In this document: positions 5,130-12,957 of the stretch, in pieces
How the letters are laid out: each line of letters starts with the position of its first letter
Numbering within the stretch: position 1 is the first letter of the stretch
Source of the DNA: Gammaproteobacteria bacterium
Lineage (GTDB): Bacteria > Pseudomonadota > Gammaproteobacteria > Tethybacterales > Persebacteraceae
Direction of reading: 5' to 3'
Length of the DNA stretch: 25,686 nt
Assembly (NCBI GenBank): GCA_051009095.1
Contig: JBPCWX010000121.1
Span: 1 to 25,686, forward strand
Translations under genes and position numbers: made by a program
The notes under the pieces: generated by a model
The model's database searches: none
The model's input: only the letters and a program-made list of their open reading frames with translations
Told to the model about the DNA's origin: nothing

Positions 5130-7775
5130 TTAATGGTCATCGCCGGCATCGCCGTTTTCTTCGTCGCCATTTTGCTCTTCTTCAATGCGCGCCATACCCA
5201 CCAATTTACTGCCTTTGTCCAAATTGATTAAGCGCACGCCCTGCGTATTGCGCCCCAGCCGGCGAATGTGTTTTATGTTGGTGCGAATCAAAACACCGCC
5301 ATCGGTAATAAGCATGACATCATCATGATCACCAGCCAGCACCGCCCCAATCACTGTGGCCTTGCTTTTATCCGGCAAGCGCAGCGCAATCACCCCTTGC
5401 ACGCCCCGCCCTTTGGTGGCAAACTCTTCGGCACTGGTGCGCTTGCCGCGGCCATTGTCGGCCGCCACCAAAATCGCCAATTCTTTTGCTTCGTTTACCG
5501 ACAAAGACAACATGGAAACCAACTGCTGGTCCTCTTTTAATTTCATGCCGCGGACGCCGCGCGCAGTGCGCCCCATAGCGCGCAAGTCAGCGGCGGCAAA
5601 ACGCACCGCCTTGCCCACATTGGAAAACAAAAGCACCGTGCCCTCATCTTTGCGGTCTTCGACAAGCAAAGCATCATCGCCGCCGCCACCGCCCAAGGCA
5701 GCATTGATGAGTCGATCACCGTCATTCAAAGACAAGGCGATAATGCCGACTTTGCGCGGATGAGAAAAAGCCGACAACAGGGTTTTTTTGACCACCCCTT
5801 TGGCCGTGGCAAAAATAACATGCCGCCCGCCAGCAAAATTATTCACCGGCAGCACAGTTTGCACCGTTTCATCTTCGCCCAATTCCAAAAGCCCCACAAT
5901 CGGACGCCCGCGGCTGGCGCGTGAGGCAAGCGGCAGTTCATAAACTTTTTTCCAATACACCCGCCCCAAGTTTGTAAAAATGAGCAAATAATCATGCGTG
6001 CTGGCCACAAACAAGCGGCTGATAAAATCATCTTCGCGCGTGCCTGCCGCCTGTTTGCCCCGCCCGCCACGGAGTTGTGCCGCATAATCCGACACCGCCT
6101 GCCGCTTGACATAGCCGCGGTGTGAGAAGGTGACGATCATCTCCTCTTCGGCAATAAGGCTTTCAATGTCAATATCTTCGGCATCGGCGATAATTTCACT
6201 GCGGCGCGGCGTCGCGAAGTTTTTTTGCGCCTCGCGCAATTCATCAGCAATGCGGCGATTAATTTTTTTAGGGCTGGCTAATAATTGCAGGTGTTTAACA
6301 ATTTCATCGACCACGGCGGCATAATCCGCAGCAATTTTATCGCGCTCCATTGCCGTCAACCGCGCCAAGCGCATATCCAAAATGGCCTTTGCCTGGGTGG
6401 TGGAAAAAAGATAATCACCATCATTTTGCAAACCTCGGCGACGGTCAGATTCGGCGGGCATTGTGTCTTCCGGATTTTCCAGCCGCGCCAGCATATCGGC
6501 GACAATTTGTGCCGGCCAAGCCCGTGCCATAAGCGCTTTTTCGGCGGCAGCGGGAGAAGAAGCGGATTTAATGGTGTTGACAATTTCGTCAACATTAGCG
6601 ACTGCGGCGGCATAGCCTTCCAAAAGATGCGCCCGCGCCCGCGCCTTGCCCAATTCAAAAACCGCGCGGCGCACAACCACTTCACGCCGATGACGCAAAA
6701 AGCATTCCAGCAATTCACGCAAGTTTAATTGTTGCGGCGCGCCATCCACCAGCGCCACCATATTGATGGAAAAATTATCCTGCAACTGGGTTTCTTTATA
6801 CAGATGATTGAGAATCACCTCGGCGTTTTCGTTGCGCCGCAATTCCACCACCACGCGAATCCCTTTGCGGTCGGATTCATCGCGCAAGTCGGTGATGCCG
6901 CTAATTTTTTTATCCCGCGCCAATTCAGCAATGCGCGAAATCAAAACCGCTTTATTAACCTGATAGGGCAAATCATCAATAATAATCGCCTGACGGGCGC
7001 CGCTTTTATCCAAGTTTTCTGTGTGTGTGCGCCCCCGCATGGTGACGCGTCCGCGCCCGGTTTGATACGCCGCCATCACCCCCCCCATCCCAAACAGCAG
7101 CCCCCCGGTGGGAAAATCGGGCGCCGGCATATGCTTTTGCAATTCGGCAATCTCCACCTGCGGATTATCCAGCAAAGCAAGAGCGGCACTAATAACTTCA
7201 TTCAGATTATGCGGCGGAATATTGGTCGCCATGCCGACGGCAATGCCGGAAGAACCATTCACCAGCAAATTTGGAATACGCGCCGGCAATACGGTCGGCT
7301 CTTTTTCGGAGCCGTCATAATTCGGGGCAAAATCAACCGTATCTTTATCAATATCTTCGAGCAAAGTGTGCGCGATTTTTGCCATGCGCACTTCGGTATA
7401 ACGCATGGCGGCGGGATTATCGCCGTCCACCGAGCCAAAGTTTCCCTGTCCATCGACAAGCATATCGCGCATGGAAAAATTTTGCGCCATACGCACCAAG
7501 GCGTCATAAACTGCTTCGCCGCTGTGGGGATGATATTTACCGAGCACATCACCAACAATGCGGGCGGATTTTTTATACGGTTTATTCCAATCGTTGTTGG
7601 CTTCGTACATGGCATAAAGGGTGCGCCGATGGACGGGTTTAAGCCCGTCACGAGCATCCGGCAAAGCCCGCCCAACAATCACACTCATGGCATAGTCCAA
7701 ATACGCGCTTTCCATGCGCGACTCTAAACTAACTGATGACAATTCCTTTGCAAAATCAACGCTTTCTTTTGACAC
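5130..7775 (-). CDS. gyrA: DNA gyrase subunit A
   Basis: Motifs 'YLDYAMSVIVGRALPDARDGLKPVHRR', 'KKSARIVG', catalytic 'AAMRYTE' (Y126), GyrA-box-like 'QLRGGRG' and C-terminal pinwheel repeats. Confidence 0.98.
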   Translation of the reverse strand: MSKESVDFAKELSSVSLESRMESAYLDYAMSVIVGRALPDARDGLKPVHRRTLYAMYEANNDWNKPYKKSARIVGDVLGKYHPHSGEAVYDALVRMAQNFSMRDMLVDGQGNFGSVDGDNPAAMRYTEVRMAKIAHTLLEDIDKDTVDFAPNYDGSEKEPTVLPARIPNLLVNGSSGIAVGMATNIPPHNLNEVISAALALLDNPQVEIAELQKHMPAPDFPTGGLLFGMGGVMAAYQTGRGRVTMRGRTHTENLDKSGARQAIIIDDLPYQVNKAVLISRIAELARDKKISGITDLRDESDRKGIRVVVELRRNENAEVILNHLYKETQLQDNFSINMVALVDGAPQQLNLRELLECFLRHRREVVVRRAVFELGKARARAHLLEGYAAAVANVDEIVNTIKSASSPAAAEKALMARAWPAQIVADMLARLENPEDTMPAESDRRRGLQNDGDYLFSTTQAKAILDMRLARLTAMERDKIAADYAAVVDEIVKHLQLLASPKKINRRIADELREAQKNFATPRRSEIIADAEDIDIESLIAEEEMIVTFSHRGYVKRQAVSDYAAQLRGGRGKQAAGTREDDFISRLFVASTHDYLLIFTNLGRVYWKKVYELPLASRASRGRPIVGLLELGEDETVQTVLPVNNFAGGRHVIFATAKGVVKKTLLSAFSHPRKVGIIALSLNDGDRLINAALGGGGGDDALLVEDRKDEGTVLLFSNVGKAVRFAAADLRAMGRTARGVRGMKLKEDQQLVSMLSLSVNEAKELAILVAADNGRGKRTSAEEFATKGRGVQGVIALRLPDKSKATVIGAVLAGDHDDVMLITDGGVLIRTNIKHIRRLGRNTQGVRLINLDKGSKLVGMARIEEEQNGDEENGDAGDDH

Positions 7776-7990
7776 AATAATCTTTCTGTGAGAGAGTAAA
7801 ATAAACCTCTATTTTAACACAAAAAGCAAGCACATATGCGGCTTCCGGGGGGAATGTTTATTGGCCTTTTTTCGGATAATTTGCCCATTGAACAGAAATC
7901 AAAAATTCCCCCATCAAATGCTGCCAACAAGAATGTTTTTATCGCAAAAACACCAAAGGAAAAATATCTTTTATGGCATAAAATACTCAT

Positions 7991-9076
7991 ATGAGGATTG
8001 TTCCTAACCCTACTCGCAATAGTGCCTTTTTGGGATTATGGCAGAATGACTATGAGCATTATCAAATGCCGCAGCCGCAATATTTGGGCGCCAAATACCA
8101 ACTGCTTAACTGGCTCACAAAACATATACCCATCAATGGCGGCGTTATGTTGGACGGCTTTGGCGGCTCCCAATCTGTTGCTTTTGCCATGAAAAAAATG
8201 GGGTTTGCCGTCCACACCAACGATTTTCTTAATTTTTGCCACCAAAGCGGCATCGCCTTGGTGGCAAACAAAAGCGCGATATTAAACAAAGATGATGTAG
8301 CGATGTTGTTTGCCGACAATCCCTGCCGCCGTAAAATAATGATTCGTTTCAAAAACATTTTTTTTGCCGAGTCAGAATGCGTATTGCTGGATAACTTTCG
8401 CACCAATGTTGATCAATTTTCCTGTCCACACAAACGCGCCTTAGCCTTGGCGATAATGTGCCGCAGTCTTACGCGTAAAACAATTATGGGGCATTTTGCA
8501 CATTTGCGGGCGATGGAATACGCACGCAATCCGCTTCGCGTAAAGCGCAATCCCAGCATTGCCCGCAATATCCACGACTTATTTTTAGCCTTATTGCCCC
8601 AATACAATGCCGCTGTATTTGACAACGGCCAAGACAACAAAAGTTATCACGGCAATATTTTGGAGATGCTGCCGTCATTGGCGGATGCGGATTTAGACTT
8701 AGTTTACTACGACCCGCCGTATTGCCAGAGCCACGCAGATTATCAGGCTTTTTATCATCTTTTGGAAACTTTTGTGGAAGCGTGGGAAGACAAAACATTC
8801 ATCAATGGCAATCAACGCTACCACCCTCCTCGTCCCAGCGGCTTTGACAAAGTCGGTAATGTGGAAAATTCTTTTCGCCGTTTATTCGCATTGTCAGATG
8901 ACATTCCTTATTGGCTGATTAGTTATAATGACCGCTCGACGCCGACGGTGGAAACACTGGCGCAGATGGCACGGCGGCATAAAAAAGTGCGTATAGAGGA
9001 AAAAATTTATCACACTTCCAGAGGCGGTAAAGGCTCTGTGTCTGGCAGCCGAGAATTTTTACTTATCTGTCAATGA
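7991..9076 (+). CDS. N6-adenine DNA methyltransferase, alpha class (D12/NlaIII/FokI-like)
   Basis: Motifs 'QYLGAKYQLL.WL', motif I 'DGFGGSQSV', 'TNDF', motif IV 'LVYYDPPY', 'YHLLE' and 'ISYN'. An alternative start exists at ATG 8066. Confidence 0.88.
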   Translation: MRIVPNPTRNSAFLGLWQNDYEHYQMPQPQYLGAKYQLLNWLTKHIPINGGVMLDGFGGSQSVAFAMKKMGFAVHTNDFLNFCHQSGIALVANKSAILNKDDVAMLFADNPCRRKIMIRFKNIFFAESECVLLDNFRTNVDQFSCPHKRALALAIMCRSLTRKTIMGHFAHLRAMEYARNPLRVKRNPSIARNIHDLFLALLPQYNAAVFDNGQDNKSYHGNILEMLPSLADADLDLVYYDPPYCQSHADYQAFYHLLETFVEAWEDKTFINGNQRYHPPRPSGFDKVGNVENSFRRLFALSDDIPYWLISYNDRSTPTVETLAQMARRHKKVRIEEKIYHTSRGGKGSVSGSREFLLICQ

Positions 9077-12000
9077 CTGCTCTGTTCATCATCAGTCGCT
9101 GCTCGGAATTGCTTAAGATCCTCCATTGTTTTGATGTTAATTTTTCCTGCCACTTTTTCCAACTTCTGCCGTATCTTATCCAACCACGAGGGCAATCCAC
9201 AAGTGATAAACAAAAACGCTTGAACTTCCTTTGACTGCTCCTTATCCGACAACACGGCACGAGCGAGTGCCTGATATTTAACGCATTGATATAACCCCTT
9301 TATGAGTTCGCCAGACATCACAGAAGTTTTGACTTCAACAATAACATATTCGTGTTCCGATTCAAAAACGACGTCAGCTTCGTCGTTGGTGGGAAAACCA
9401 CTCTCTATTTTAGCTACTACACTATCGGACGTAAGTCCAAATAGTTTGGGGGTTTTTGATAGTTCCTTTTTTAGCACTTTGTGTTGATCGCCTTCGCCTC
9501 CTCCACCGCCGTTCTTGATGGACGTTCCGCCCGGCTGCCTATCGTCCGGTTCACCCCCCCCTGGCGGTGTGGGTGTTAGCGGCGGCTGGGGAGGCGGTGG
9601 CGGCGGGGGAGGTGGCGGCGGCGGGGGAGGCAGTGGCGGCGGAACGCCATTTCTTTTTTCTTGCTCAACCCTTATAACTAATAAAGATTCTTCAGTTTTC
9701 CCATAATCCTCCCGCAATCTACGTAAGCACCCATCATTATTTTCCTCGTTAAGAAAATTCTCAATGTGCGGTTTATTATAAACTGAAGATTTCGACAATG
9801 ATGCAAGTGCTGCTGCCAACGCACGCACGGTGTTGTCTTTCATACTTACTTTAATAATTGAGGGCTCAGTTTCAATTTTATATTCAATTTTATAAGGGAC
9901 ATCAATATCAAAATCGGGTAACTTTTCAGATTTCAGGCATATTGATTCATATACACAAATTGTTATATCTTCAGAAAAATTACCATCATTAATAGCCTTC
10001 AAGTATAGTTTTCTATCATTATATCGTTTCTGCATCTCCTCTGTTTCACGCGACACCTCATCTTTGCACTCATACTTCGAATCCAAGTAATCGCTTAGTT
10101 CAGGCAAGTCGGATTTTTCACCTTCGGCAAGAGAACAAATAAAGATATTAATGTCTTCTTTCTCTAATAACTTGCTACGAACGACGGGAACAGCCAAATA
10201 AGATTTATCTAACCAATAATAATCGGAGTCCGCAAAATACATAAATTCACCTTTATCAGTTTTGCGGATACATGGGATTTTGAGCGAACCAGGGATAGCA
10301 CCAAAATTTTCTATGTAATGCCGATAAACTTCCTTTGTGGCTCTGGCCACTGCTCCCCTTGTCCCATCCCATCTCATATCTGCCTCATCATTAGTTTCCC
10401 TATTCTCATATAATTTCTTTATCAAATCGATAACTTCGTCTTCTACATTAGGAAGTTCTTCTTTCATGCCAAGATCTTTCATAGCGTCCCAAAACTCATA
10501 TCGTAGCCTCCCATCTTTAATTTCAATAACTTCTGGCAAAAGCCCGCCCAAACTTTTGTCCTGCGCATAAATCTCCCAAGGTTTTTTATACTCACCGCCC
10601 ATTATTCTGGACTTGCAACGAATCCATTCCAGTTGCTTTAATTGGTAAAGGGCAAGGCTATGACTGAAAAATTCAAGACGAGAACCTCGATAACAATAAA
10701 AATCTCTATGCTCCTTAGCCATTCTATGTAATCTAACTAGTATCACTGCAAACTCTTCAGACCGAATGCTCCTTATTTTCATAATAGCACTTTCGTCAAA
10801 ATAAAATTGTCGTATGTTATTTACAGAATTTAGACCCATCCTGTGCAAGTGTTGCCTGATGATGTCATTGTATTCAGGTGCCAAAGCACTAATAGATTCA
10901 TTATAATATCCTTCCATAACATACAATTTTGGTATCCGAGAAACCCCTAACCACTGAAGCAGAGGAATATATTCTTCTTTTTTAGCATCTTCTATTTTCC
11001 ATTTCTCAATAGGAAGAATAACTTTTTCCATACCATCAAATTGCTTATACCCGCCCCATTTTGATCCCGCATAGCATTCAATGGCGGGAATCCATCCTTT
11101 CTTTGTCGGCACACGAATAACCCTGCCGACTGTATTTCTCTCATCTTCTTCCCCAATTATCAAGTCATCGACCGAATTGTCCTCCAGCCACTCACTTGCC
11201 TGATGCAATATTTTTGCGCCATTATTACACCACCACTCCTGATCTTTACCCTCGCAGTGTGGCACTAAAACCTTTTCAATAAAATCTTTCTTTTCCAAAG
11301 GCACACAAGGCAATTTACTTCTATCTTTAATACCTTCAAATGCTTCCTTAAAACCGGTAGCCAAAACATCTACACGCAACCATTCTGGCCATGGCAATAG
11401 ACATTCCATTAAAATTGGACACTCGCCGTTATAACTCCGAGCCCGATTGCCCAAAAACCAAAAAGGAATTTTGCGTAAATGCTCATTAATAACAACATCA
11501 TCACTAAATTTATCAACCGCAAATTTAATGGCATTACAACAATCCCCAACACTTCCATTTTTGCAATACTTCAGTAGCCTAAAATAATCTTCCTTGTCTA
11601 TCTCTATTGCCTTTAATCCCTTTAGAATAGGATACACTTTTTTATCCTCATCCTTTTGCAATGAGCCGCACAATAAACACTCATCCTTAACTTCTGGCAT
11701 GTCCGATTTTAGCAAGTCGCCAAAATTATTTTCCCACAATTTAATTTCATTGGGTTTGCATTTACCACCCCCAAGAATCGGAACAAAATCCGTTTCCGCC
11801 ACCACTTCGGCTATGGATTGGCGCATAGTCCCAATGACACCTTCATATTCATCTTCATGTGCCTTGCCAAATGCCAACAAGCCAGTTTTAGGAGGAACAT
11901 GGCAAAGAATATCCTTTGTCATTTCTTTTATCCCCTCGCAAATATCGCCGGCATTCTCTTGCCCCTCGTCTGCCAAATGTTTCCTGTCTGCATTAATCTC

Positions 12001-12957
12001 AAATGAAGCATGAATAAGTGCGCCAATTTTGGGCAATTCCTCTTTCGATGGAAAGAAAACATGTAAAAGATTTTCGGTGTCGGTGTATGGTACTGCTTTG
12101 CCTTTATCCAACGGTAAGGCTATGGATGCGCTTATTCCTTTTCCTTCCCCAATCCACATCCATTGTTGCCAACTTTTAGATTCTTTCCGTCCGTTTTCTG
12201 TGGTAGTCAAGTCTACTTTTGATTTTTTTGCACCAAAAACACCGTCTCTTTCAAGCCGTATTTTACGCTCTATTTTTTGTGTGCCGTCTTGTATTTCAAC
12301 TTTAATACAATTCAAATGAGGGCAAAACAATAAACACTCCGCCGATAATTCCTGCAGTTGTTTTATGGTTTGCTCCCGCGCCTCAGTATCTTTAAATGGC
12401 AACCGTATAACCGTTACATACTTCTGCCCTTTTAACTCAGCAATCTCATCATCTGGTTGGCATTTATGGGGGATGCGAAAAATAGGAACCTCTTCGCCAT
12501 CGGCAATTTCCCCTATCCTTTCCCGCGTTTTGTCTTCCGAGAAACAAAAAGAAAAAGGGCCAGAGTATATTGACGGTTCTCTGGATATTTGCAATACTGA
12601 CTTAAACCCAATACCCTTCACACCTATAAGTGTAGGGGCTTTTACCGCGTCATTAGCATTTTGGAGTAATTCCAATAATAGCCGACCGCTATAATCTTGG
12701 CAAATCCTTTTTTCATGCTCCACATCCTCAGCAAGCCTGTTTTTGCTCTGATAAACGCTGAGACATTCCTGCGCAATCTCTTCTATTAAATTTAAATCAT
12801 CACCATACTCATCATTGGGAATTTCCCGCTTCCCGCTCAAATACATATAACACAAAGAAATAACACCATCACGAGTAAACGGCTCCCCCGTATTCGCAAC
12901 AATAAGCGCGCTTTCCGTAACACGAAAAAGAATGGATTGCAATTTTTGCTTTTGCAT
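9070..12957 (-). CDS. 1295-aa sacsin/NOV-like GHKL ATPase with a long central region, polyproline linker and C-terminal PD-(D/E)XK nuclease domain
   Basis: N-terminal 'DYSGRLLLELLQNANDA', 'IGVKGIGFKSV', 'IYSG..F.F' and 'T.IRLPF' are sacsin-type GHKL motifs. C-terminal 'EADVVF...VIVEVK...KGLYQCVKY' is a D...ExK nuclease core with a QxxxY helix. The ORF is uninterrupted and AT-richer than its flanks. Confidence 0.8.
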   Translation of the reverse strand: MQKQKLQSILFRVTESALIVANTGEPFTRDGVISLCYMYLSGKREIPNDEYGDDLNLIEEIAQECLSVYQSKNRLAEDVEHEKRICQDYSGRLLLELLQNANDAVKAPTLIGVKGIGFKSVLQISREPSIYSGPFSFCFSEDKTRERIGEIADGEEVPIFRIPHKCQPDDEIAELKGQKYVTVIRLPFKDTEAREQTIKQLQELSAECLLFCPHLNCIKVEIQDGTQKIERKIRLERDGVFGAKKSKVDLTTTENGRKESKSWQQWMWIGEGKGISASIALPLDKGKAVPYTDTENLLHVFFPSKEELPKIGALIHASFEINADRKHLADEGQENAGDICEGIKEMTKDILCHVPPKTGLLAFGKAHEDEYEGVIGTMRQSIAEVVAETDFVPILGGGKCKPNEIKLWENNFGDLLKSDMPEVKDECLLCGSLQKDEDKKVYPILKGLKAIEIDKEDYFRLLKYCKNGSVGDCCNAIKFAVDKFSDDVVINEHLRKIPFWFLGNRARSYNGECPILMECLLPWPEWLRVDVLATGFKEAFEGIKDRSKLPCVPLEKKDFIEKVLVPHCEGKDQEWWCNNGAKILHQASEWLEDNSVDDLIIGEEDERNTVGRVIRVPTKKGWIPAIECYAGSKWGGYKQFDGMEKVILPIEKWKIEDAKKEEYIPLLQWLGVSRIPKLYVMEGYYNESISALAPEYNDIIRQHLHRMGLNSVNNIRQFYFDESAIMKIRSIRSEEFAVILVRLHRMAKEHRDFYCYRGSRLEFFSHSLALYQLKQLEWIRCKSRIMGGEYKKPWEIYAQDKSLGGLLPEVIEIKDGRLRYEFWDAMKDLGMKEELPNVEDEVIDLIKKLYENRETNDEADMRWDGTRGAVARATKEVYRHYIENFGAIPGSLKIPCIRKTDKGEFMYFADSDYYWLDKSYLAVPVVRSKLLEKEDINIFICSLAEGEKSDLPELSDYLDSKYECKDEVSRETEEMQKRYNDRKLYLKAINDGNFSEDITICVYESICLKSEKLPDFDIDVPYKIEYKIETEPSIIKVSMKDNTVRALAAALASLSKSSVYNKPHIENFLNEENNDGCLRRLREDYGKTEESLLVIRVEQEKRNGVPPPLPPPPPPPPPPPPPPQPPLTPTPPGGGEPDDRQPGGTSIKNGGGGGEGDQHKVLKKELSKTPKLFGLTSDSVVAKIESGFPTNDEADVVFESEHEYVIVEVKTSVMSGELIKGLYQCVKYQALARAVLSDKEQSKEVQAFLFITCGLPSWLDKIRQKLEKVAGKINIKTMEDLKQFRAATDDEQSSH
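9562..9642 (-). repeat. Low-complexity CCN tract encoding PPPL-P14-QPPLTPTPP
   Basis: Read directly from the sequence: 14 consecutive Pro codons (9589-9630), built from imperfect CCTCCCCCGCCGCC(G)CCA units. Confidence 0.95.

Follow-up and report, generated by a model that had tools for sequence, protein, structure and literature searches.

The window analysed here is a stretch of 25,686 nucleotides (contig JBPCWX010000121.1) from a gammaproteobacterium of the order Tethybacterales. On its minus strand, at positions 5130..7775, it carries a gyrA gene with a GTG start that codes for an 881-residue subunit A of DNA gyrase, as identified from the list of open reading frames, the translation, the NCBIfam models and phmmer. 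The reverse complement of positions 7503-7532 reads CAT CCC CAC AGC GGC GAA GCA GTT TAT GAC and is translated H P H S G E A V Y D. By translation and alignment, the HPH and AVYD flanks of this span (7503..7532) are canonical. Between them, the codons AGC GGC GAA at 7515..7523 specify S85, G86 and E87, a variant triad that stands at the start of helix alpha-4 in place of G81, D82 and S83 of E. coli GyrA (E. coli numbering is used below for these positions). The GAC codon at 7503-7505 specifies D91, the equivalent of E. coli D87, and the acidic residue at position 87 is thus kept within AVYD. The data presented here show that the altered triad belongs to a state that is real, order-wide, monophyletic and rare elsewhere.

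The protein passed two GyrA equivalog models of NCBIfam, NF004043 with 1140.8 bits (cut-off 902) and TIGR01063 with 1112.2 bits (cut-off 877), and scored under the cut-offs of the ParC models. When phmmer was run against solved structures (934 bits), residues 6-107 paired with residues 2-103 of E. coli GyrA with zero gaps. This gapless alignment sets the offset at +4 and therefore places S85-G86-E87 on G81-D82-S83. The TAT codon at 7398..7400 encodes the catalytic tyrosine, Tyr126 (E. coli Y122), an invariant column of alignment A1, and R125-Y126 within AAMRYTE correspond to R121-Y122. The winged-helix domain is present. A motif search located QLRGGRG, a GyrA-box-like motif, at residues 567-573 of the C-terminal domain (6057..6077). 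The GyrA box, of consensus Q-x-R-G-G-x-G, marks gyrase rather than topoisomerase IV. The form QRRGGRG is present in six other full-length variant proteins, and no GyrA box was found in P0003, a partial protein of 522 residues. Overall, every sequence criterion applied assigns the window gene to the GyrA family, with one exception: in place of the canonical G81-D82 dyad, the window reads S85-G86. The preliminary description of this DNA had reported SGE in place of GDS in an otherwise orthodox gyrA, and the codons, the offset, the equivalence of Tyr126 with Tyr122, the scores and the retained D87 all bear this out. It had also proposed that the motif could be read as a one-residue register shift with an inserted Ser. 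This candidate was excluded by the gapless alignment and because the order-wide changes lie at 82 and 83; G81 is, besides, still present in 8 of the 19 genomes of the order.

The possibility that the codons are an artefact of assembly or binning, or that the gene is a pseudogene, was considered, since the window genome is a fragmented metagenome assembly (1.81 Mb, 303 contigs, 82% complete, 4.4% contamination). Contigs from three studies, X1 (cave metagenome), X2 (sponge metagenome) and X4 (coded organism), cover positions 7200-7800 with one or two other letters each. The list of their differences holds only A>G at 7653 and shows nothing within 7503-7532. These are contigs rather than raw reads, and one of the runs may be the window's own source. 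The public protein P0002, a representative of 17 member sequences, shares 99% identity with the window protein across the first 260 residues and has the same SGE. Furthermore, the frame is open across all 881 residues, and the same type of motif occurs in all 18 relatives, single-contig genomes included. The probability of an artefact is therefore negligible: the three-study contigs, P0002 and the 18 relatives rule out an assembly error for practical purposes.

The triad was read in all 19 genomes of the order present in the collection, which fall into four families, f1 to f4. In family f1, which includes the window genome (G000), we found SGE (G000, G009), SQD (G001), DGN (G002), AGE (G003), GQD (G004, G006, G010), GGE (G005, G008) and SGD (G007). 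Family f2 has SQD (G011) and GQD (G014); family f3 has SQE (G012, G015, G017), GQE (G016) and SQD (G018); the one genome of f4 has GGE (G013). Whatever the genome, the triad is of the form x-[G/Q]-[D/E/N], and Asp at 82 occurs in none of the 19. At positions 82-83, QD is found seven times, GE six, QE four, and GD and GN once each. Position 81 is Gly in eight genomes, Ser in nine, Ala in one and Asp in one. The flanks GK[YF]HPH and A[VL]Y[DE] are nearly constant, AVYD being present in 16 of the 19. All members are uncultured and have small genomes, of 1.5-2.9 Mb. The earlier suggestion of a lineage signature is thus upheld.

The motif was also looked for among GyrA homologues and mapped on a phylogeny, as had been proposed. 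Among the best 120 homologues plus the query (121 proteins), 91 are G-D-x, and the other 30, query included, show SGE, GQD, SGD, GGE, SQD, DGN or AGE, which are kinds found in the order. The nearest named G-D-x homologues are from Rhodocyclaceae (76-77% identity). Position 82 is only Gly or Gln and position 83 only Asp, Glu or Asn, not just in the 19 genomes but also in 29 of 29 further variant proteins. In a GyrA tree of 34 sequences and 502 residues, the order forms a single clade with support 100/99. Nine columns of about 500 cleanly split the order from the outgroup, 82 and 83 being among them; one of these signature columns, position 19, is Ser in E. coli too. On the tree, families f2 and f3 carry Gln82 and f4 carries Gly82, and f1 is divided between the two residues. 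Swaps between Q-D and G-E at 82-83 occurred at least four times; for instance, G000 has AGC GGC GAA where G001, of the same genus, has AGT CAG GAT, with four base differences in two codons. D was never restored at 82 within the order. The coupling between 82 and 83 is loose, since Q-E (4), G-D (1) and G-N (1) are also present. Because position 81 varies, what happened at the order's base was the loss of Asp82 together with the gain of an acid at 83; Ser81 came later and locally.

Outside the order, D82 was present in all 15 GyrA read from other orders of the class (GDS 6, GDT 6, GDA 2, SDT 1). A class sample of 401 genomes, 3 from the order and 398 others, was then scanned with the pattern K[YF]HPH-x-[G/D/E/R/H/Q]-[D/E/N/K]-A. 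All three order members matched, as did nine genomes among the 398 others (GDN 5, GDK 2, GEN 1, EQN 1), so [GQ][DE] occurs in 0 of the 398. With D/E required at 83, a phylum sample gave matches in 0 of 300 other genomes. The patterns require the K[YF]HPH and Ala84 context, and variants in other contexts would escape them. The claim that three adjacent changes are very unusual goes too far: position 83 varies widely (GDN, GDK), S81 is found elsewhere (SDT, SDD), and the loss of D82 alone is truly rare. One of the class matches, G296:C49:26515-26540 from another order, reads K-F-H-P-H-E-Q-N-A; there, G81 and D82 are replaced differently, and the gene may be GyrA or ParC.

A scan of species genomes used a looser pattern that also allowed D/E at 82 and N/K at 83; it returned at least 120 loci, which serve as examples and not as a census. 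Among the matches listed, GDN (67) and GDK (38) predominate with few others, and at least nine loci have a non-acid at 82. One of these nine, L147, sits inside family f3. The remaining loci, at least eight in seven assemblies, comprise two Kiloniellales (GQD, GGE), one "Pseudomonadota" (GGD), one Bifidobacteriaceae (AGE) and three Alphaproteobacteria records (GGD, GGE, and GGD twice in one assembly). Regarding the latter, L083 and L130 are the same GGD GyrA fragment on two contigs of one alphaproteobacterial assembly, which may reflect a duplication, two strains or assembly redundancy. In a modestly supported tree built from a short alignment of 182 columns, the alphaproteobacterial variants cluster with canonical alphaproteobacterial GyrA (GDN, GDK) and apart from the order (Shimodaira-Hasegawa-like approximate likelihood ratio test, 83 and 90). 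Therefore, [G/Q][D/E] arose independently in some Alphaproteobacteria. Five independent variant genomes were searched whole, and three of them (G417, G419, G420) retain a ParC-like gene; these three are among the four alphaproteobacterial genomes searched in this way (G417-G420). Since 3 of the 5 keep this gene, [G/Q][D/E] is a recurrent solution and not a simple consequence of the loss of topoisomerase IV. The ParC-like sequences of these three Alphaproteobacteria, L181, L182 and L183, have SEQ, GEV and GET at 81-83, with Glu at the position that matches GyrA 82.

In the body of literature searched, no paper contains the literal motif strings. A search on an acid at GyrA position 83 (Glu/Asp substitutions) gave no gyrase paper among the matches listed. 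The excerpted text of 10.1101/495630 mentions a supplementary database survey of D82N, which may list related natural variants.

The preliminary description had further suggested that parC be checked for parallel changes. This check had no object, as neither parC nor parE was found in the window genome or in any genome of the order. With a GyrA query, no ParC-like match was obtained in the 19 order genomes, seven of which are in 1-5 contigs, while in other orders the same query picked up an additional, ParC-like gene in 20 of 22 genomes. The only extra matches in the order were a 26-residue fragment in G003 and, in G014 (the genome with the highest contamination), a GyrA-like fragment with 65% identity that lies at the end of a contig. 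In each of 18 of the 19 genomes, the same-genus G001 included, a single GyrB and no ParE were found. On its GyrB side, the quinolone pocket (EGDSAGG, PLRGKILNVE/Q) has the canonical sequence in the 18 loci holding it. The order thus has no type IIA topoisomerase other than gyrase, and the variant enzyme, as the sole one of this type, must be functional. One irregularity was seen among the gyrB genes: L165 (G005:C1:1378570-1380972), the sole gyrB of its single-contig genome, contains one TGA, in frame, within the matched stretch. This is odd for a gene expected to be essential, and a sequencing error, recoding or a broken gene could each account for it.

The neighbours of gyrA are housekeeping genes (pta, argE, a glycosyltransferase gene, mobB, trxB, mgtE, lpdA, ilvA), and no biosynthetic cluster was found among the window genes. 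In the window genome, which is 82% complete, searches gave neither a second gyrA nor a match to Pentapeptide (PF00805), the Qnr-like protection family. None of the marks of producer self-resistance, namely a second gyrase copy, a linked cluster or a pentapeptide-repeat gene, was thus found. Elsewhere in the window, the 7991-12957 region holds a plus-strand open reading frame of 361 residues, with no NCBIfam match, convergent with one of 1295 residues whose N-terminus matches a sacsin-like P-loop ATPase domain. At 1-807, an open reading frame running past the 5′ end of the window has a weak resemblance to adenine-specific DNA methyltransferases (CcrM-like, 75 bits, well under the cut-off). At G019:C10:30734-32749, in a genome from the same class but a different order, the match to the GyrA N-terminus falls into two parts (query residues 6-129 and 125-250), about 1.3 kb apart. 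Both parts lie in one open frame of 1332 residues, and the arrangement suggests an intein inserted beside the catalytic tyrosine.

Published work on these residues, cited here from excerpts of each source, gives a basis for a mechanical interpretation. In S. aureus GyrA, the pair of Asp83 residues (E. coli Asp82) can touch at the winged-helix interface of the uncleaved complex; the pair moves apart toward the cleaved state, and D83N disfavours this transition (PMC6723622). The quinolone water-metal bridge runs to Ser83 and Asp87 (PMC9886550), and Gly81 hydrogen-bonds simocyclinone D8, G81S causing a 40-fold increase of the half-maximal inhibitory concentration with E. coli GyrA (PMC4018983). 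These two reports, as far as the excerpts go, match what the preliminary description had stated about S83 in the bridge and G81 in the simocyclinone pocket.

Taken together, we favour the view, with a probability of about 0.6, that the window carries a functional gyrA in which the first turn of helix alpha-4 is in an alternative, selectively maintained state that arose once at the base of the order. The near-universal Asp82 would have been replaced by Gly or Gln, and Ser, Thr or Ala at position 83 by Asp or Glu, rarely Asn. This state would then have been kept in all families, with position 81 free to vary (G, S, A, D), SGE being one presumed local version. The pattern of variation is that of a defined alternative state under selection, with position 81 freed from its usual constraint. 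Mechanically, the D82-D82′ contact across the winged-helix interface would be gone and, because the Asp82 pair touches and a D-to-N change disfavours the cleaved state, Gly or Gln at 82 may shift the balance between cleavage and religation toward intact DNA. The pocket on the two-fold axis would be reshaped by Gly/Gln82, and the acid at 83 may restore the local negative charge. By analogy with the single mutants, we tentatively suggest, at somewhat less than even odds, a remodelled two-fold-axis corner with a probably lower cleavage set-point.

Several observations weigh against this view. Substitutions that could compensate were sought across the N-terminal ~500 residues, and none was evidently linked to 82/83; without a compensating change, a nearly neutral local swap fits as well as an adaptive one. 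All the statements on function are analogies, taken from mutants with one change in an E. coli, K. pneumoniae or S. aureus background. The role of D82 in the balance of the gate is itself disputed, because one group, in the excerpt of PMC9886550, reports that cleavage was not visibly changed by D82N in E. coli GyrA in its own experiments. The AlphaFold2 models of the window GyrA (alignment A1, 32 rows) and of its canonical homologue P0031 (alignment A2) gave predicted local distance difference test values <50 over residues 1-143 and 1-131, respectively, and therefore neither is informative on the start of helix alpha-4 and the interface. No match to gyrB was found in the window genome, a gap that we attribute to the incompleteness of this assembly (82% complete). 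As for drugs, an acid at 83 could support rather than break the quinolone water-metal bridge, and wild-type H. pylori has Asn at 83 (GDN, L039). H. pylori is quinolone-sensitive.

It is also conceivable, if rather unlikely, that the triad is a neutral signature of the lineage, a near-neutral double change fixed in a lineage of small population and small genome in which Asp82 and Ser83 would be conserved but dispensable. Positions 81-83 would then drift in a loose allowed set, with no selected mechanical or drug consequence. The variation of the three positions inside the order, the lack of a compensating site in ~500 columns and the housekeeping neighbourhood, devoid of a biosynthetic cluster or a pentapeptide-repeat protection gene, all fit such drift, as do the excerpt of a review that terms the Ser and the acidic residue 'highly conserved, but nonessential' (PMC11019561) and the D82N result of PMC9886550. 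However, the allowed set is narrow, with only G/Q at 82 and D/E/N at 83 in every order genome and every further variant protein read, D never came back at 82, and [GQ][DE] recurs independently in Alphaproteobacteria and in a Bifidobacteriaceae genome. This narrow set and the independent recurrence argue for a defined alternative state and not for free drift.

Two adaptive explanations were also weighed. Sponges and caves are habitats rich in natural products, and nearly identical DNA was recovered from sponge and cave metagenome runs. A gyrase poison of the habitat that uses Asp82, Gly81 or Ser83, simocyclinone-like or quinolone-like, might thus have selected the change as target-site resistance. 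All three positions are known resistance positions in the excerpted sources (PMC4018983, PMC5855675, 10.1101/495630) and, as there is no second target enzyme, one gene decides sensitivity. Nevertheless, we consider this improbable: no candidate compound, producer or biosynthetic cluster is tied to the lineage, an order-wide state with varied residues is older and broader than a typical resistance sweep, quinolones and NBTIs (novel bacterial topoisomerase inhibitors) are synthetic, and the effect of an acid at 83 on quinolones could go either way. Alternatively, the gate may have been retuned so that gyrase also decatenates after the loss of topoisomerase IV. The distribution would suit this idea, since the variant is in 19/19 order genomes with ParC in 0/19 and ParE in 0/18 with GyrB, while ParC is present in 20/22 genomes of other orders and the 15 with GyrA read all have D82. 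But this is a single evolutionary event without replicated correlation. The idea that the motif is a consequence of ParC loss is also weakened by the ParC-like genes kept in independently variant Alphaproteobacteria, that is, in 3/5 independent variant genomes. H. pylori is not known to have topoisomerase IV, and it keeps G-D. Adaptation to a sole type IIA role is thus highly improbable as the explanation.

If the favoured state is as proposed, it would have side effects on drug binding. Intrinsic resistance, put forward in the preliminary description, is plausible to the extent that single mutants known from other species are a guide. According to the excerpts, Asp82 hydrogen-bonds the basic nitrogen of NBTIs (PMC11019561), whose potency falls when the aspartates are changed to glycine (PMC5855675). 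GyrA D82N combined with ParC D79N gave gepotidacin resistance of >560-fold in E. coli and >2080-fold in K. pneumoniae, and GyrA D82N alone gave >16-fold ciprofloxacin resistance in K. pneumoniae (10.1101/495630). In the window protein, Asp82 is replaced by Gly, as expected at the sequence level of an NBTI-insensitive gyrase. With the Asp anchor for NBTIs such as gepotidacin predicted to be lost and no topoisomerase IV as a second target, the gyrase of the order would likely be insensitive to these compounds. The quinolone water-metal bridge is also predicted to be altered. Quinolone-resistance alleles that break it have residues such as L, F, W or I at 83 or N, G or Y at 87. The window GyrA has Glu at 83 and keeps D87. 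A lower quinolone sensitivity of the order's gyrase falls just short of an even prospect, since the bridge might still form with a carboxylate at 83. In S81 carriers, the window included (S85), the sequence counterpart of the G81S change of simocyclinone-resistant GyrA is present; weaker binding of simocyclinones would follow, and the chances that such carriers are less sensitive appear evenly balanced.

Going further, these features could together represent a second stable design of the gate corner, with D82/D82′ deleted and a carboxylate at 83, reached by convergence at least three times (the order, Alphaproteobacteria and a Bifidobacteriaceae genome), and with a lower cleavage set-point and natural insensitivity to NBTIs and a lower sensitivity to quinolones and, with S81, to simocyclinones. 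Taken as a whole, this is a speculative proposal, which we regard as doubtful. If it is true, the enzymes of this design are a natural experiment on the purpose of D82. Asp82 is the main protein anchor of the NBTI class, including gepotidacin, and adjoins the quinolone and simocyclinone sites. The order provides working natural enzymes without Asp82, making its role testable by reversion, and shows which alternative residues evolution tolerates at 81-83. No direct clinical consequence follows, because these bacteria are uncultured and environmental.

Finally, the window protein may be compared with known systems, of which the D82N, D82G and G81S mutants from laboratory and clinic and natural position-83 variants such as H. 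pylori GDN come nearest. It resembles E. coli GyrA (6rks_A, 7z9c_A, 9gbv_A) in its full-length 934-bit match, with a gapless N-terminal winged-helix region, in the HPH and AVYD flanks, D87 and R121-Y122, and in the tower, the coiled coil, the beta-pinwheel C-terminal domain and the acidic tail. It differs by S-G-E for G81-D82-S83, L for I74, A-L for T88-I89, M for L98 and D for Y100. Within the order, residue 74 is nearly always L, and 88, 89, 98 and 100 are variable and overlap other lineages. Natural variants at position 83 are also lineage-wide replacements of the bridge serine. Mycobacteria have Ala at GyrA position 83, H. pylori has Asn87 (GDN), and GDK occurs in Bacteroidota and Ignavibacteria. 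Unlike the order, the natural position-83 variants keep G81-D82, and none pairs a carboxylate at 83 with a non-acid at 82. A further likeness is found in the alphaproteobacterial GyrA with GGD, GGE or GQD (L176-L179, L083, L116; Kiloniellales and unclassified genomes), which have the same [GQ][DE] between HPH and A-[VI]-YD; they differ in their separate origin and in that 3 of the 4 genomes searched whole keep ParC.

With the simocyclinone D8-resistant E. coli G81S mutant, the window shares the identical substitution (S85), known here from sequence alone; S81 is, however, found in just 9 of the 19 order genomes and is secondary to the changes at 82/83, and no simocyclinone-like producer is known in the habitat of the order. 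The D82N and D82G mutants (S. aureus D83N and D83G), selected or built against NBTIs and quinolones, likewise lack the aspartate at the same position. In terms of the excerpted reports, Gly82 of the window is the exact Asp-to-Gly change that cuts NBTI potency (PMC5855675), and the Gln82 found elsewhere in the order resembles the amide of D82N (10.1101/495630, PMC6723622). Each of these mutants has one change in an otherwise canonical enzyme, and topoisomerase IV is usually there as a second target, whereas the state of the order is ancient and order-wide, with an acid at 83 and gyrase as the sole type IIA enzyme. What sets the state apart from the known mutants is a combination that is fixed and ancient, is shared by the entire order, includes an acid at 83, sits in the sole type IIA enzyme and recurs in other phyla.

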